Positions 21,116-28,763 of a DNA stretch of 34,412 nt are shown here, in pieces. The notes under the pieces are model-generated. The model had not been told where the DNA came from and made no database searches. It saw only the letters and a list, made by a program, of their open reading frames with translations. The translations under genes were made by a program, and so were the position numbers. The stretch's first letter is position 1, and every line of letters starts with the position of its first letter. This DNA is from a virus (taxonomy: Duplodnaviria; Caudoviricetes): IMG/VR virus record IMGVR_UViG_3300020449_000326, positions 1 to 34,412 of that record; one strand, given 5' to 3'.

Positions 21116-22711
21116 TTAAGCTTTAAATAATACGAAATTATTAGCAGCTTGAGTAATTAAACATCTTTCACTTAAGTAATTTACTTTCATGATATCGATA
21201 TCAGAACTTGGTGAATCAGTTCCAACAGATCCTGTAATCCAAGATTTGTTTTTTCTGTTCTCAGTTTCTGATGCTCTATATCTAATGTGTAAGAATGGTC
21301 TTTTGATATTTTGGCCTAACTGTTGATCGTAAACAGTAGAAGTTCCAGCAGGAACTAATACACCTTCAACATCACCAAAACCTCCACGAGTTGACCAGTC
21401 ATTTAAGTATTTCCAGTCAGTTTTGTAAAAGTCATAAGAACCTCTTCTATATCCAGTAAACCCTAAATTAAGAGCCATATCTGCACTGTTATTAAATACT
21501 CCATAAGAAGTACCTTTTGTAACACCCGCAGCACCGGCATAATTACCGTTTTGCATTGCAAGAATGTCATCAATTTCTAAAGATAGCTCTCTATTTAAAA
21601 ACAGCATATTTTCTTCAATTGATCCCTGCTTGTCTAATTGCTTAAGTACAGCATCAAAATCTGTAAGTCCACCATTACCTGCACCAGCAGCAGCTTGGCC
21701 ACCAAATCCAGTATAAACGTTTCCTCTTGATTCTAATGCAGCGAAGAACCCTTCAGTACCTCTTGCATTTTGAGCAGCTAATGGTCCGCCAAAAGTACCT
21801 AATGTAATTGCAGCACCTCCAGAGGCGTATTTAACGCCTTCAACCATTGACATTTCTAGCCAGTCTTCCCATCTAAGTCTTACTTCATGCTCAGACTTTA
21901 TATACCATAAATATCCACTAGCTCCATTTTCAGAAGTAACTTCAATCCAACCAATCTGAGCTGTGTCAGATCCGCTGATTTGATAGTTTTCTTTTAATAT
22001 AATAGGAGCATTAGTAAATGTAGCATATCCTGGATCTAAGCTCTCAGTAAAGTTTCCTGTACCTTTAGCAAATTCAGATCCATAGCAAATTGCAGTTACT
22101 CTTTCAGCAGCTAATACTCCACCGTGAGCTTCATAAGCTTGGATTTGGAACATTTGACCACCAGTAGTACCACCACCGCCAACTCCAACATTAGTACAAA
22201 CTCCTTTAATAACAGCACCCGTTCCACCAACTGCTGAAGTAGCATTTGTTTGAACTTGAACCATTACAGTTTGTCCTATTTTAAAGTTAACTTGTTGTGT
22301 TTGAGTAGCTGGGCTAACTCCTAAACTTGCAGGTTGCGTAGTTGGTACTTCAAAGTTAAGTACACCACCTGATGCTCCAGCAGCAGCGATAACCGCTTGT
22401 CCACCACCAGCAACAGGCATAGCGCCTGCAGTTCCTCTTGGGATTACATTTACATATCTAGTGTGTAATCTGCCTTGCTCAGTCCATATAATTTGGTCTG
22501 AAGTAGAAGGCATCTCCGCAGATACCATACGTAAAAAAGAACCGATTGATCTGTTTCCATATCTTTCAACTTCTTTTTCGTATACATCTGGTAAATATTG
22601 TTGTGTCCATTGATCAAAATTTGTATTTGTGAAATCAATGTAGTTTCCGGAGTACAACGTCTTTGTTTGAGTCGGTTGTAATGCAGCCGGAATTCCGCTT
22701 GTAAAAGCCAT
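21116..22711 (-). CDS. Major capsid protein
   Basis: QQYLPDVYEKEVERYGNR, WTEQGRLH, GSDTAQIGW, GYRRGSYDFYKTDWKYLND and LSERCL...ANNF motifs. Portal-scaffold-MCP synteny, followed by a strong terminator. Confidence 0.9.
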   Translation of the reverse strand: MAFTSGIPAALQPTQTKTLYSGNYIDFTNTNFDQWTQQYLPDVYEKEVERYGNRSIGSFLRMVSAEMPSTSDQIIWTEQGRLHTRYVNVIPRGTAGAMPVAGGGQAVIAAAGASGGVLNFEVPTTQPASLGVSPATQTQQVNFKIGQTVMVQVQTNATSAVGGTGAVIKGVCTNVGVGGGGTTGGQMFQIQAYEAHGGVLAAERVTAICYGSEFAKGTGNFTESLDPGYATFTNAPIILKENYQISGSDTAQIGWIEVTSENGASGYLWYIKSEHEVRLRWEDWLEMSMVEGVKYASGGAAITLGTFGGPLAAQNARGTEGFFAALESRGNVYTGFGGQAAAGAGNGGLTDFDAVLKQLDKQGSIEENMLFLNRELSLEIDDILAMQNGNYAGAAGVTKGTSYGVFNNSADMALNLGFTGYRRGSYDFYKTDWKYLNDWSTRGGFGDVEGVLVPAGTSTVYDQQLGQNIKRPFLHIRYRASETENRKNKSWITGSVGTDSPSSDIDIMKVNYLSERCLITQAANNFVLFKA

Positions 22712-22733
22712 AATGTTTTGATTTTAAGTTAAA

Positions 22734-24047
22734 CTATTTCCATTTAATTCGCAACTTATCAGAGGAATCTCCTGAAACAACTCTAATTCTATCACCACTA
22801 TTAGTTGTTATTGTAGCACCTTCCTGTCTAGGATCCATATTTATATTTTTAGCTTTTTTAGCTGACTCTTTTATTGCATCGGCACGGCCTTGCTCATAAA
22901 AATGATTAGCTATTTTATCAGCATTTCTTGCTGTAAATATTGCTTTATGATATTCATTAAGATTGGTGTAATTAGTATCTTTAATATATGGTTGTAAAAA
23001 ATTTGATATATCAGATTGAAACTCTTTAACTTTGCCCGGGTCGTCTACTTTAAACCTGTATTTGTTTTCGCCTACCTTAAAATCAAAACCTTTGAATTCT
23101 TCGTTAAAAACTTTATTAGTTTCATTTAGAAAACTTTTTTTAGCTAAGTTAGTTTGCTCTGCTTGTTGCTTAGATGTATTATAAAAATCAACTGCTTCTT
23201 TATACTCAGAAGGAATATTTTTTTGTTTTGAACTTAACTTAAGATCATTATAATATTTTTCTTTTGTATCATGAAGTAATTGTTGAGCTTTATATACCTC
23301 TTCTTTAAAAGCTAATTGCTTAGCTTTTACGTCAGACGGATCGTCCGCCTCCACATCATATGAAAAGTTTTTATCCATTAAAAATTGAATATCTTCTTTA
23401 TCAAGATGTGGTTTAGTGTATTCGTAATATTCTTTTAAAAGACTTACGTTATCTATTTTAGAATAATCCCTATTTAGTTTTGCATAATCTTCTACTGTTC
23501 CACCAGTTTCTTGCATAAACTGTATAAGCTTATCTACTCCTTCAGGAAGTTCTTGTGTTTTTTCTTCCTGTAATATTTCTTTTTGTTCCGATATGGGCTT
23601 GGTAGCTTGAGGCTTTCTATCCATTCCCTCCTCGTTAGTGTTATTTTCTCCATCTTTAATTAATTCTAACGGTGAATCAGAAGAATCTTCTTTTATTTCC
23701 TCTTTCGACTCTTGAACAGGCCGTACTTCTTCTTCCACTTTTTGTATATCTCCGGTTGGTTTATCCTCAGGTACATCTCTTGTTTCTTGCTCTGGAACGG
23801 CATTTGTTTCTTCTTTTTTTGTTTCTTCTTTTATTTCTTCTTTAGGTGTTGGAGGTTTATCTAAATTAACTTTATAAACTCCATCATCTTGTAATCCATA
23901 TTCAGGTGCAACTTTACCTTCATCAACTGCTTTTTGTAAAACAGCAGCTTCTTTTTTAGCGGGGGTTACAGTTTCAGGATTAATTTCACCTATGTCTTTA
24001 ACATCTATAGATGGTTCTTGTTTGTTATCTTTAACTTCTTCTTTCAT
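22734..24047 (-). CDS. Putative capsid scaffolding protein
   Basis: Long acidic disordered N-terminus, FMQETGG.VEDY..LNRDY and ANHFYEQG.ADA motifs. Lies between portal and MCP. Confidence 0.75.
   Translation of the reverse strand: MKEEVKDNKQEPSIDVKDIGEINPETVTPAKKEAAVLQKAVDEGKVAPEYGLQDDGVYKVNLDKPPTPKEEIKEETKKEETNAVPEQETRDVPEDKPTGDIQKVEEEVRPVQESKEEIKEDSSDSPLELIKDGENNTNEEGMDRKPQATKPISEQKEILQEEKTQELPEGVDKLIQFMQETGGTVEDYAKLNRDYSKIDNVSLLKEYYEYTKPHLDKEDIQFLMDKNFSYDVEADDPSDVKAKQLAFKEEVYKAQQLLHDTKEKYYNDLKLSSKQKNIPSEYKEAVDFYNTSKQQAEQTNLAKKSFLNETNKVFNEEFKGFDFKVGENKYRFKVDDPGKVKEFQSDISNFLQPYIKDTNYTNLNEYHKAIFTARNADKIANHFYEQGRADAIKESAKKAKNINMDPRQEGATITTNSGDRIRVVSGDSSDKLRIKWK
23534..23653 (-). CDS. Overprinted 39-aa basic protein with ArfA-like C-terminal motif (+1 frame of scaffold)
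   Basis: MEKITLTRREWIESLKLPSPYRNKKKYYRKKKHKNFLKE*, ATG after AATTAATTAAAG, TAG stop. Not in the ORF track. Confidence 0.7.
   Translation of the reverse strand: MEKITLTRREWIESLKLPSPYRNKKKYYRKKKHKNFLKE
23693..23803 (-). CDS. Overprinted 36-aa basic protein MPFQSKKQ... (+1 frame of scaffold)
   Basis: MPFQSKKQEMYLRINQPEIYKKWKKKYGLFKSRKRK*, A-rich leader. Resembles a recalled family of standalone small phage proteins (MPFKS.KQ..Y...N.PEI...W...YG). Confidence 0.7.
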   Translation of the reverse strand: MPFQSKKQEMYLRINQPEIYKKWKKKYGLFKSRKRK

Positions 24048-24078: not shown

Positions 24079-26526
24079 TTAAGATGCTTCAAATCGGCCC
24101 ATATCAAAACCGCCTAAAGTATCATTACCTTTTGATTCAAAATCTTTAACTGGTTCATCAGTATTTGGTGCACCACTTAGTTTTCCAGATGTTTTAAGTT
24201 TAACATCTTCTCTTATAAGTTCACGCTGCAGCATTGATTTATTGCTTCTTTCCGCTAACTCCATTTGAGATTTTAATTCAAGTTCTTTAAGTTGAACATT
24301 TAAATTAAATTCATATTGCATCAATTCTTTTTTAGCCCTTGTTTCTATTTCCATTTTTCTAATGTCCATTTCATTTTCAGCTGTTGATAATTGAATTTTA
24401 GATTCTGTTTTTATTTGTTCTGATTGTGCTTTGGCCTCTTCAATTTGTATTTGTGCTTGTCCTTGAGCTTCTGCTTGAGCTCTTGATGCAGCTTGTGCTT
24501 GTGCTTGGTCTGAAGCTTGTTTTGCAGCTCTTCTAAATTTTAGCAATTGATTAGCTAATTTTAAGTTTTTAACTTCTCTAACATCAATTGCATCTTCTAA
24601 ATGTATACTATCTTTTGATAAAGCTACTTGTATATTGTTTTCTAAAATTTGTTTTTCATTTTCATCAGGTTCCAATTCTAAAAATATACCAAAGTCATGT
24701 AAATTTAAATTAGTTAATTCTTCTAATGAACCCACAGAAAATTGCCCTAAAGAATCTATAAACATTTCTTTAGTAGGGTGATATTCTAATACGTCTTTAA
24801 ATCTTAAAGAAATAGCTTCAGCTAAACAAGTGGTTATAAACATACTAGCTTGCAATATGTGTCTTGTTGCTACATTACTATTTGCAGCAGCTAATTTTTG
24901 TACACCTACAAGAGAATATTGATCTGGATCTGCCGCATCCCTTGCTTCATTTAAACCAGTAACGTCTCTTATCATTTGTATATATTGATTATAAGCACCA
25001 ATTAATACTTGTATTTGATTACCACCACCTCCTGGTAATTCTTGAATAGGTATAGCACCATTATTTCTTTCACCTTCCATAGTCAAAGATCTACCAATTA
25101 TAGATCCTGTTTGGAAATACATATTTAATGCTTCTTGAGGATTATAATTTGTACCGTTACCTAAATCAATCTCAGCAAGACCATCAGCGTCAACATATAC
25201 ACCTGATGGTGTCATTCTTTGTATAGCTTGCTGAAGTTTCAAATGAGTTAACTGAATTAAATCAGCATATGCTGTCATTTTTGAAACTAAAGATGTAATG
25301 TTGCCTTTATACATTCTAGGTGCACTAACAACATAATTCATCATTACTTTATTTATATTATTAGTAGGTCTTATCATATTTGTAGCTTTTTGCCATTTTA
25401 AAATATAATCAGTACCTAATATTAATACACCTTCATAAACAACCTCTCTTGTTTGTTTTACTTTTTCAAATCTAGTTCTTTTATCTTTAGGAGGATTAAA
25501 AGAATCATCTTTTGCAATAGCTTTTTTACCACCGGTTGGAACTTCTTTTATTTTGTATACATCATGTTCCCATGTTTTCCAATTAAAATATAAAACATTT
25601 AATGTATTTTTTGCAGCTAGCTCACTTTGATTATAAAAATTATGATTAGGATCATTATAATCATTCCAGCGTGAACTTTTATTTACAAGTTCTTCTATTT
25701 CTTCATTAGGTAATCCTGGAAATTCTTTTTTAAGTTCATTAACTTTTATACATTTTACTTCACCAAAATAATAACAATCTTGAAAATTAGGATCGTCAGT
25801 ATAAGAATAAACTAAATTAGCTGGATCAACATAATCAACAACAACACCGTCGGTATTATTAAAAGAATGTTTAGTTGCACCTATTCCTAAAACGGTTAAA
25901 TCATAATCAACACGTTTTTTAATTTCTTCATATTTATTAGCTTTAAAAATATTATCTAAAGCTTCTTCTTCTGCCATTTCAATACCTTGCTTATAGTTAA
26001 GCTGCATATATAGTTCAAGCTCTTCTGTATTAGCGGGTAATTCATTTACAGCAAAATTTCTAGCAGATACTCCTAATTTTGTTTCTATATCTAATAATAA
26101 ACTAGCTGTATTTAAATCTTGTTGTACATCATTAACAAATTTAGTTCGTTTACCAGTAGAAATATTATCTTGACCAACCGCTTTAATAGAAAATAATCTA
26201 TCTTGCATTCCATTTACAACTAAATCAACAAACTTAGGTATTATTGGAACTGGTTTCCAATCTAAGTTAAGATAAGATAAATCACCATTAATTGCAAATT
26301 CATCTTTATATTTTCTAATTGATTGTTCTCCACGAGCATATAATCTTAGCCTATGAGCCTCTTGTCTAGAATTGTAAAATTTCCCTATGCCATTGTTATC
26401 TTTATTGAACCATTCTTGCTCAATAGCTCTTCCCACAGATAACCCATACTTTTCGGTTTGCTTTTCTGCATCGGAAACTGCTTGACTTGGAAATTGTGTT
26501 AAAACTTTTCCTTTTAATTTTGCCAT
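24079..26526 (-). CDS. Portal protein
   Basis: RLYARGEQS, LDWKPVPIIPKFVD, YVDPAN and RDVTGLNEARD motifs, Gln-rich C-terminal coiled coil, directly downstream of terL. Confidence 0.9.
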   Translation of the reverse strand: MAKLKGKVLTQFPSQAVSDAEKQTEKYGLSVGRAIEQEWFNKDNNGIGKFYNSRQEAHRLRLYARGEQSIRKYKDEFAINGDLSYLNLDWKPVPIIPKFVDLVVNGMQDRLFSIKAVGQDNISTGKRTKFVNDVQQDLNTASLLLDIETKLGVSARNFAVNELPANTEELELYMQLNYKQGIEMAEEEALDNIFKANKYEEIKKRVDYDLTVLGIGATKHSFNNTDGVVVDYVDPANLVYSYTDDPNFQDCYYFGEVKCIKVNELKKEFPGLPNEEIEELVNKSSRWNDYNDPNHNFYNQSELAAKNTLNVLYFNWKTWEHDVYKIKEVPTGGKKAIAKDDSFNPPKDKRTRFEKVKQTREVVYEGVLILGTDYILKWQKATNMIRPTNNINKVMMNYVVSAPRMYKGNITSLVSKMTAYADLIQLTHLKLQQAIQRMTPSGVYVDADGLAEIDLGNGTNYNPQEALNMYFQTGSIIGRSLTMEGERNNGAIPIQELPGGGGNQIQVLIGAYNQYIQMIRDVTGLNEARDAADPDQYSLVGVQKLAAANSNVATRHILQASMFITTCLAEAISLRFKDVLEYHPTKEMFIDSLGQFSVGSLEELTNLNLHDFGIFLELEPDENEKQILENNIQVALSKDSIHLEDAIDVREVKNLKLANQLLKFRRAAKQASDQAQAQAASRAQAEAQGQAQIQIEEAKAQSEQIKTESKIQLSTAENEMDIRKMEIETRAKKELMQYEFNLNVQLKELELKSQMELAERSNKSMLQRELIREDVKLKTSGKLSGAPNTDEPVKDFESKGNDTLGGFDMGRFEAS

Positions 26527-26528
26527 AT

Positions 26529-28763
26529 TTATTTTATTAACTCGCTTTGATACCCTTCATTTTTGTATCGTGAAAATTCAAAATCTAATTTTTTAACTGT
26601 TCTATCTGTACTAGGTTTATATAAATGTTTTCTACAAGCCATTATAGCTAAACCACTACTTATAGATGCATCAAAAGATGTTCTACGTGAAATATCAAAC
26701 CTTGCCCAGTCTTCTAAAGTTCTTTGAAAATACATATTACCATAAGAATCATCATTTCTTCCAACATATTCTTCAATATAAGATTCAATAGCAGCTGCAT
26801 GAGCTTGCTTAATGTCTTCAGAACTATTAGGTATACCTCCTAATTCTAGTTCAGTTTTAGATAAAGCACCTTTTAATTTATCAGGTCTATTCATAGAAAA
26901 ACCTCTATACCCTCTTCTTTTAATATGATATAGTAATCTTGGTTTATTATTTTCAACTAATATAGGCATACTATAAAATATGCATGCCATTAATACATCT
27001 TCAAAAAATATTTCTGCCGTTTGTGGTCTTGCTATATATTCTAAAAAAAATTTAGTATTAGGTACATCGCTAGTCATAGTAAATGTAGTTAACCCATGTA
27101 AAGACCCATTCGAACCACCACCCCCAACTGTTCCTGATATATCATAAGGATCACACCCAAAAGCACCTAATCCATCATTACCAGGATATTTTATACCATT
27201 TTTTTCAATAATATTATTTTGTAATTGATCTGGAGGTAACCAAGATATTTTAAATCTACCGTTTTGTGTTGGTGTCCATATTACTTTACTATCTTTTATT
27301 CCATTTTGCCAAGAAAAAGCTCCTCGTACAATATGGCCATTAAATTCCATTTCTTCATTATAATCTATTTGTTCATAAATTTTAGTTAAATTAAATAAAG
27401 AATTTAATGTTTCATCTCTAAATGCATGCTTTTCTGATCTTGGAAATTGTCTATAATATTCATTTAAAGCATCACTATCATTTTTTAAACCTTCAACCTC
27501 ATTCTCCCAGTGTTCAAGGACTCCCGTATAGATGAGTTCACCATCAATTCCTTCAACCGGATCTGATGGAGTGGTGAAGACAGGATATCCATACTTATCA
27601 ATAAATCCTTCGAAACCCCATTCCATAGGTATGAACAAAGAGTATAGTCCACTTGTAGTCTGGCCATTGCGATTTCTGTTTGTAACATCTGAATTATAAT
27701 ATAATTTTTTAAATTTATCACCGCCCTTATCTAATGCATTAGAAGTGGAGCCCATCATACATTTACCAACTACTTTCGACCCGAGGCGGAGACACGTTTT
27801 TGTAACCCTCCAGTTATTGAGGATGTTGTCCGGCCTCTCCCATTTACCCGATTCGTCGTGGATGAGGAGTTGTAATTTCTCCCCGTCGTATGAATTGTCC
27901 CCCGTGTTCTTCCAGTCAATTGTGGTGTCCAATCCGTCCTGTATCTCAGAGGGGGCGGGGCTGGTGGCTCGTATCGTATTCCTCGTGAGCCTCCTTGATG
28001 GTACTTTGTACGAGAGTTCCGTTTTTGGACGTTCCATACCATCCTGTATTGGTTTAAAAAAGAACGGGTAATTAGTCGAGATTGGGACCACCTTATCCGT
28101 GAACATCTTCTTAGCGTCTGCTCCACTCTTAGATAAGATCCCAAATCTAGAGTCTTTTGAAGTTGTAGCCTGATGAACACATTCTGATGACGCCATAAAG
28201 GAGAAACCAGACCGTCTATTCTTAAGGTAGCACATCCCATAGCATCTGCTATCAGCCTTGCATGCTTCCCAAAAGTAGAAAAATATCCTGTTTGCATGTC
28301 GAAAGTCTGGGGAGCCCACATCGATCTTAGTCCAGTTGAGATAAATATAGTGCGATCCTGTAAGGTAGCACGGGGTACCGTTGCACATGAACCAATAACC
28401 ATCATTACGATAATTAAACTCATTATCGATGTAACTATAATATTGGTCTTTAATATCTTCAGTATAGCTTTGAAAATCATATAATGTTTTTATTCTTGTT
28501 AATGATTGTGGTCTTTCCCTTTTTATAAATACTTGATTTTCTTTTTTTAAATTTTTACCGTGTATTTTTTTAGGGGTTTGAGGTATACCTACCTTAAGAC
28601 CTTGTATTTCATATATATCACCTAATGTACCGTCCTTACTAATAATAACACAATCTAAATCACTATTATATCCATATTTAAATTTTTTATTTTTATTTAA
28701 ATTTTTGGTATATTTTTTATCTAAATGATCTGTATGTATTTTATATAAAGTTTGTTTATACAT
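26529..28763 (-). CDS. terL: Terminase large subunit
   Basis: Walker A-like KNRRSGFS, Walker B LLIHDESGKW, coupling motif GSTSN, nuclease motif GCDPYD, and LVENNK. Confidence 0.93.
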   Translation of the reverse strand: MYKQTLYKIHTDHLDKKYTKNLNKNKKFKYGYNSDLDCVIISKDGTLGDIYEIQGLKVGIPQTPKKIHGKNLKKENQVFIKRERPQSLTRIKTLYDFQSYTEDIKDQYYSYIDNEFNYRNDGYWFMCNGTPCYLTGSHYIYLNWTKIDVGSPDFRHANRIFFYFWEACKADSRCYGMCYLKNRRSGFSFMASSECVHQATTSKDSRFGILSKSGADAKKMFTDKVVPISTNYPFFFKPIQDGMERPKTELSYKVPSRRLTRNTIRATSPAPSEIQDGLDTTIDWKNTGDNSYDGEKLQLLIHDESGKWERPDNILNNWRVTKTCLRLGSKVVGKCMMGSTSNALDKGGDKFKKLYYNSDVTNRNRNGQTTSGLYSLFIPMEWGFEGFIDKYGYPVFTTPSDPVEGIDGELIYTGVLEHWENEVEGLKNDSDALNEYYRQFPRSEKHAFRDETLNSLFNLTKIYEQIDYNEEMEFNGHIVRGAFSWQNGIKDSKVIWTPTQNGRFKISWLPPDQLQNNIIEKNGIKYPGNDGLGAFGCDPYDISGTVGGGGSNGSLHGLTTFTMTSDVPNTKFFLEYIARPQTAEIFFEDVLMACIFYSMPILVENNKPRLLYHIKRRGYRGFSMNRPDKLKGALSKTELELGGIPNSSEDIKQAHAAAIESYIEEYVGRNDDSYGNMYFQRTLEDWARFDISRRTSFDASISSGLAIMACRKHLYKPSTDRTVKKLDFEFSRYKNEGYQSELIK
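27485..27688 (-). CDS. Candidate overprinted 67-aa protein (+1 frame of terL)
   Basis: ATG at 27688 after a very AT-rich stretch. GC about 41% at 27481-27660, falling to about 26% at 27301-27480 just past its stop. Confidence 0.45.
   Translation of the reverse strand: MLQTEIAMARLQVDYTLCSYLWNGVSKDLLISMDILSSPLHQIRLKELMVNSSIRESLNTGRMRLKV
27770..28480 (-). CDS. Overprinted 236-aa putative lipoprotein (+1 frame of terL)
   Basis: Basic plus hydrophobic signal ending IGS-C32, and a Pro/Arg/Ser/Thr-rich tail. GC about 53% at 27781-28020 vs about 23% at 28501-28740 within the same terL gene. Confidence 0.7.
   Translation of the reverse strand: MIFKAILKILKTNIIVTSIMSLIIVMMVIGSCATVPRATLQDRTIFISTGLRSMWAPQTFDMQTGYFSTFGKHARLIADAMGCATLRIDGLVSPLWRHQNVFIRLQLQKTLDLGSYLRVEQTLRRCSRIRWSQSRLITRSFLNQYRMVWNVQKRNSRTKYHQGGSRGIRYEPPAPPPLRYRTDWTPQLTGRTRGTIHTTGRNYNSSSTTNRVNGRGRTTSSITGGLQKRVSASGRK

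Follow-up and report, generated by a model that had tools for sequence, protein, structure and literature searches.

In phage lambda, Rz1 is nested inside Rz, and the D protein of phiX174 is an external scaffold. Gene E of phiX174, lying inside D, is an overprinted, fully nested phage gene, and nested +1 genes in disordered regions are a known kind, in which the nested frame is normally new and has no remote homologs (PMC8227390). The marine phage locus described here resembles both pairs in that a small gene (A) lies wholly within a larger one, on the same strand and in the +1 frame, and resembles E and D further in that the host gene is scaffold-like and its double constraint is eased by disorder. 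It is unlike both in that A's nested frame appears old, widespread and constrained while the host reading is near-neutral filler, and in that A also occurs free and in a second, unrelated host gene, with its alleles exchanged. The reversed order of gene age and the change of host gene are what is new relative to known nested +1 genes; such a route to overlapping genes, with an old small gene and a new host reading, is opposite to that of the textbooks. Overall, we propose (probability about 0.6) that A is a conserved small gene captured in the +1 frame of a predicted disordered, acidic stretch of a likely scaffold gene, with its own start on the late mRNA, and that its product is a basic helix-turn-helix binding DNA in head assembly or in the virion.

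The window, meaning the whole 34,412-nt stretch of DNA analyzed, is a linear virus record from marine samples, 54% complete, whose minus strand carries, in succession, the genes for terminase and portal, a 437-aa ORF and a capsid-like gene (Table 1). The Calle_1 gene in the same position as the capsid-like gene is annotated as major capsid. The 437-aa ORF shows the hallmarks used for scaffolding proteins, as it lies between the portal and major capsid genes and encodes an acidic, helical protein with a disordered N-terminus; in the AlphaFold model a helical core begins at about residue 166, and pLDDT is < 50 at residues 1-27, 65-123 and 134-163. The segments under A and under B, a second nested ORF, are thus predicted to be disordered, in agreement with the disordered linker proposed by the first-pass annotation. 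Comparison with characterized scaffolds gave no profile or structure match, and the Atlas leads, at 0.80, were to PF09306 and PF05396. The scaffold name is therefore taken from position and build, by which the ORF is likely a capsid scaffold gene. Its nearest cultured relatives are in Flavobacterium Elemovirus phages (35% identity), with weaker matches in Cellulophaga, Maribacter and Tenacibaculum phages.

Table 1. Positions in the window of the nested ORFs, their host gene and the genes beside it
Feature	Coordinates	Strand	Basis or remark
Portal gene, upstream neighbor	24079..26526	-	phrog_6547, E 9e-136
Host gene, 437 aa, scaffold-like	22734..24047	-	Location and architecture (helical core, N-terminus acidic and disordered); putative scaffold
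Host residues 65-123, predicted disordered (pLDDT < 50), ORF A inside	23679..23855	-	AlphaFold model
Host residues 134-163, predicted disordered, most of ORF B inside	23559..23648	-	AlphaFold model
A-rich, weakly structured stretch before the ATG of A	23804..23823	-	Would fit Bacteroidota-type initiation without Shine-Dalgarno
ORF A, nested gene for a 36-aa basic peptide of net charge +11; helices predicted at 6-15 and 17-27 with a turn between them	23693..23803	-	+1 frame of scaffold-like gene
ORF B, also nested, gene for a 39-aa basic peptide, patchy among relatives	23534..23653	-	Frame of A, 39 nt further on
Virion structural protein, likely major capsid, downstream neighbor	21116..22711	-	phrog_13704

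ORF A runs from ATG to TAA and overlies codons 82-118 of the ORF at 24047..22734; the first-pass annotation had its position right, as well as its completeness (36 aa), its +1 frame and its distance of 39 nt upstream of B. The same annotation had read A's Lys codons as Glu in the scaffold frame, which holds roughly: among the scaffold codons sharing their first two bases with the 10 Lys codons of A (7 AAG, 3 AAA), 5 encode Glu, 3 Gln and 2 Lys. A and B together cover 77 (47%) of the scaffold's first 165 codons. ORFs this long readily arise by chance in the window, whose long genes contain 20 alternative-frame ATG ORFs of at least 30 aa (A and B counted), so the reality of A had to be tested comparatively.

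A conservation set was built from 77 loci found with the scaffold alone, giving 64 distinct complete scaffold genes. A is present in 61 and B in 12; as a control, a +1 ATG followed by 28 open codons occurs at any single core column in at most 15% of 61 genes. With peptide-found loci added, 159 scaffold genes comprise 76 with both ORFs, 79 with A only, 1 with B only and 3 with neither, one of the last (L091) being a start-trimming artefact at a locus where A is present. Selection was assessed by counting isolated substitutions in 97 of 154 spanning-tree pairs, those with core identity of at least 85%, with pairs aligned in the scaffold frame and a fixed transition bias assumed in the opportunities. 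Over the first 28 codons of A, changes that are silent in the scaffold and alter the peptide number 27/2170, against 146/1830 for those that alter the scaffold and are silent in the peptide. The scaffold core shows the reverse (1973/18732 scaffold-silent; 189/19645 scaffold-altering and +1-silent), and B behaves as A does (12/1388 peptide-altering; 160/1328 peptide-silent and scaffold-altering). These counts indicate that A and B are both under purifying selection and that the scaffold reading of these stretches evolves nearly neutrally, the opposite of the better-conserved scaffold frame that the first-pass annotation had named as fatal to its proposal. Its companion prediction, of standalone matches to the +1 frame beside an unalignable scaffold frame, was borne out in its first half; the scaffold frame can in fact be aligned, with a majority share over the A region of 0.54 vs 0.63 in the +1 frame (94 distinct stretches).

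One could suppose that A is a shadow ORF kept open by constraint on the scaffold frame, given that chance +1 ORFs of its size are common in the window and that a 236-aa ORF inside the terminase gene behaves like one. Selection in the opposite direction in both of A's host genes, however, together with an average of 2.8 stops in the host-type frame of free copies, makes this extremely improbable, and A is almost certainly a real nested gene as judged from its pattern of substitution. An RNA-library contig is identical to the window over 22700-23870, so the nested arrangement is not an assembly error, although such contigs carry no strand or translation information. Initiation in Flavobacterium is favored by adenine at -3 and little structure (PMC6847099). 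Adenine stands at -3 in 90% of 93 distinct A start contexts, and folding energy at the start is -1.5 vs -5.6 for control ATGs; the B context is weaker, with adenine at -3 in 43% of 44. To judge from these sequence contexts, translation of A likely begins at a start codon of its own on the late head mRNA, although the A-rich context may be a by-product of the host's Lys and Glu codons.

The 236-aa ORF (window 27770-28480, minus strand) lies in the +1 frame of the terminase gene and starts with a hydrophobic stretch and a lipobox-like Cys. It is open at full length in 7/7 relatives compared, which were themselves found by that frame, and in the two most distant of them the terminase frame is better conserved (0.89 vs 0.74). 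This ORF is likely a shadow.

The first-pass annotation had related A to standalone small phage proteins, and free-standing homologs were indeed found. A profile of 22 A copies matched 3,061 clusters at E <= 0.001; among the best 150 of these, the motif begins at residue 1 in 129, and 36 exceed 100 aa. Among 316 confirmed viral loci, the best 80 place A in the scaffold (47), in a giant gene (5), free (11) or as an N-terminal fusion (17). Free copies occur in phages of unrelated hosts, often within runs of small basic genes adjoining portal, scaffold or capsid genes, and in 34/47 of them a stop codon overlaps or abuts the ATG. The gene order in L267 and L270 is portal, A, scaffold-like, capsid. 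Other free copies lie beside lysis-type genes rather than head genes, and in Streptomyces phage FlowerPower A is the annotated gp48, between a peptidase and a holin. A search of 185,579 prokaryotic genomes gave 26 A loci, 25 of them in metagenome bins; such loci are rare and many have phage neighbors, which indicates that A is not a cellular gene.

Some relatives of A have thus been annotated, while the nested copies checked were not called as genes. Phrog_1375, a family without assigned function, is matched by 7/22 aligned A homologs (best E 1.6e-5) and is not matched by the window peptide at E 0.1. Direct tblastn of the window's A and B against 50,697 phage records gave nothing, although typical family members did match. 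Neither window peptide is present in a collection of 15 billion proteins. Gene callers thus overlook, throughout a phage group, a gene family that is very common in marine phages, and family counts and presence tables are wrong for that group. The literature searched, mainly open-access papers and their main texts, contained nothing on the A family or the overlap, and catalogues of small phage genes in supplements could list it. A candidate identity as DUF3008 (PF11450), from an Atlas lead at 0.81 only, was rejected, with no match at E <= 1 in the window nor in 32 family proteins.

Several minor features accompany these copies. In L103, L124, L130, L141, L144 and L149, long proteins with an N-terminal A module have recurring Gly-Gly-x-Ile motifs after basic stretches, which are possibly processing sites. 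Runs of small, very basic genes, one of them DUF6321, lie beside A in unrelated phages (L113, L134, L097, L124, L150). The database protein P0093 joins a scaffold N-terminus to peptide A and is likely a frameshifted assembly.

The observation is wider than first read, as A is also nested in an unrelated giant virion gene of sister phages. In the cultured Elemovirus NC_055853.1 the scaffold has no A, and an unannotated A lies in the +1 frame of the gene for gp18, a giant virion protein, at its codon 1220 (L240:7001, corresponding to position 52379 on the + strand), as a Cys-pair allele; this gp18-borne allele has equal-score matches in 68 Elemovirus records. In MW202828.1, A is likewise nested in a long ORF. 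A giant-host set was obtained by searching with host-frame sequence upstream of four giant-borne copies, and 41 of its 44 loci carry A. In the A region of the giant gene, peptide-altering changes number 1/451 vs 19/343 host-altering ones (19/35 pairs), and the upstream control is reversed (89/922 vs 17/980). The three other loci comprise a truncated one, one whose record is 53% complete, and G022, in which A is free, directly after the giant gene. Phages of the giant type have scaffolds without A, three of which have a B-like frame. In L260, A lies inside a giant gene without similarity to the others. Measured from a conserved block, A stands at host codon 364 (L297, L298, L314) or 417 (L302) vs about 200 in other giant genes, differences that would reflect insertions in the host or relocation of A inside the gene. 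A cultured system for probing the function of this 3,000-cluster family is available in Elemovirus on Flavobacterium sp. BAL314.

Where a record matches A at all, it has exactly one copy (33/33, many of them fragments). These include 13/13 records at least 90% complete from one set of 24; as most of the 33, and 19 of those 24, were chosen for holding A, the data inform "never two" rather than "always present," and Calle_1 and Gundel_1 have no A. Free and fused copies differ from nested ones in a way that bears on how A entered its hosts. The host-type frame is open over 29 codons in 0/47 free or fused copies (mean 2.8 stops), and T before AA, AG or GA occurs 121/457 times in free copies vs 0/1356 in nested ones. 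Since the host-type frame was open in no free or fused copy, capture needs silent recoding and should be rare.

In a tree of 50 scaffold cores, those bearing A form one clade (SH-aLRT 99, by a quick method), within which A was lost separately three times (L059, L070, L072, on records 7-13% complete). In the sister groups of the clade, A is either free or in the giant gene. Scaffold length is 378-449 aa where A is present vs 339-379 without it, and the clade and the length difference together would fit a single in-frame insertion of A. The order free, then giant, then scaffold is not firmly rooted, as the root of the tree rests on two long-branch outgroups, both without A. The loss at L059:3122 took place by deletion and loss of the ATG in a scaffold nearly identical to that of L049, which keeps A. 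The single clade, and the 0/47 copies open in the host-type frame, speak against the first-pass picture of a linker acting as a general dock that tolerates whole genes. The related suggestion that such linkers hold different cargo stands only in part, as different A alleles occur with or without B, and A and B are the only cargo seen.

A alleles are less than 50% identical in 144/609 pairs whose scaffold cores are at least 75% identical. In L009 and L011 the cores are 96% identical and the flanks near-identical, with divergence limited to some 140 nt that begin directly after the ATG of A. The pattern indicates that A alleles are swapped as cassettes between near-identical scaffolds. Subtypes were tabulated by placement, since 28-33 residues are too few for a tree of A, and were defined by our own regular expressions; the window's subtype occurs in 28 scaffold, 12 giant, 6 free and 4 fused copies. 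Such sharing points to exchange between placements, with convergence possible in so short a peptide.

An origin of A de novo, by overprinting in the scaffold linker followed by escape elsewhere, would take the usual form of overprinting, a +1 internal overlap in a disordered region (PMC8227390). It is nevertheless very unlikely: such frames usually have no remote homologs (PMC8227390), whereas A has 3,061 clusters and free copies in phages of unrelated hosts; its placement in the scaffold is limited to one clade, and the sister groups have no scaffold-borne A. A's frame is neither young nor short of remote homologs. Very probably A was instead captured as an older gene. Under capture, a free copy would first lose by silent changes about three stops in the host-type frame, and the recoded A would be a block without stops that reads, in its other frame, as an acidic and flexible segment. 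Such a block could sit in frame within the disordered part of a virion protein. The giant virion gene would have acquired A first or in a separate event, and the scaffold would have acquired it once, at the base of the clade that includes the window; A would now turn over by recombination.

Taking these steps together, we lean, at odds slightly better than even, toward a single-copy gene that acts as a frame-hidden cassette, moving as an in-frame block between unrelated virion genes with its alleles swapped, so that the linker would be partly its shadow and overprinting would be reversed. If so, some of what appears to be disordered linker in virion proteins would be a captured gene read in its other frame. 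In disordered linkers, a motif that looks conserved can be the shadow of another frame.

A is modeled as two short helices (pLDDT 81). Fold searches with this model gave no PDB match at E <= 0.001, a best VIA Z of 2.5 and viral matches only to uncharacterized proteins, and sequence and fold searches against proteins of known function gave no match. Prediction of a complex between A and the scaffold core gave no verdict (score 0.00). Designed beta-propellers were discarded as relatives of A, their profile matches being sums of weak repeats. Met1, Pro2, Phe3, Ser5, Gln8, Pro17 and Trp23 are invariant or near-invariant, and Lys or Arg stands at several other positions; the invariant residues, mostly aromatic, Pro and Gln, can be read on the model as forming a small folded core whose surface is basic. 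In some alleles two core positions are replaced by a Cys pair.

Lysines of T4 internal proteins contact packaged DNA (PMC3012670). The likeness to A lies in their being small, basic, late proteins and in a conserved N-terminal module (the capsid-targeting sequence) on varied proteins. A differs from them in that no sequence or fold link was found, in that each record has one copy and not several tagged proteins, and in that packaging of A is putative. Most free copies of A have portal, scaffold, capsid and other virion genes around them, and by analogy with T4 A may be a late, head-associated, DNA-binding helix-turn-helix, an assignment we make tentatively, at somewhat less than even odds.

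The T4 precedent would also suit an A module that serves as an N-terminal capsid-targeting tag carrying cargo into the prohead, like the T4 internal-protein signal (PMC3012670). The motif at residue 1 in 129 of the best 150 clusters agrees with this, as does the fusion to long, unrelated proteins in 17 of the best 80 loci, often right after portal or other virion genes. A tag, however, would be expected on several proteins per genome, and one match was found in each of 33 records; most A copies, moreover, have no cargo at all, leaving this role rather improbable. Phage phiKT gp28 is a cationic, membrane-disrupting lysis helper. A similar role for A, suggested by its net charge of +11 with aromatic residues and by its neighbors in FlowerPower and in L097, where it follows an endolysin, appears marginally less probable still, since most placements are in head or virion genes, long fusions and invariant Pro, Gln and Trp better suit a folded mini-domain, and A occurs in a phage of a Gram-positive host. 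The high identity of A in phages whose hosts are distant could mean that it acts on a conserved target in the host and does not simply bind DNA.

By the substitution counts, B is evidently also a real nested gene. The first-pass annotation called it ArfA-like, and B and ArfA are both short basic peptides; B's Tyr-x-Arg-Lys-x-Lys-His tail resembles the ArfA motif. The name did not survive profile searches: neither B nor its homologs matched ArfA (PF03889), nor was there a match to a solved structure. Homologs of B resemble DUF7230 (PF23876) weakly, the best at 20.1 bits (E 7e-4), below the cut-off of 27, and membership was rejected. It is in connection with B that a role on the host ribosome or in translation, exerted by the product of A together with B, deserves weighing. 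A and a B-like gene adjoin when nested and when free (L157) and are fused in P0036; each is a short, basic peptide conserved among phages with distant hosts, as would suit a target that the hosts have in common, and the basic tail of B is close to the ArfA motif. This role is unlikely, if less so than a tag or a lysis helper, given that the nearest family of B is DUF7230 and not ArfA, that no match to ribosome-bound chains rose beyond noise, and that B occurs in only 12/64 scaffold-found genes, so that A works without B. DNA binding in the head stays our favored, still tentative, role for A.

A protein search with one B homolog gave 3 unnamed matches only. Of 80 loci found with a B profile, 79 are nested in the scaffold and one is a free-standing B (L225:3001-3195). 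At L157:3001-3217 a basic DUF7230-like ORF comes directly after a free A, and protein P0036 is a fusion of A with a DUF7230-like ORF.
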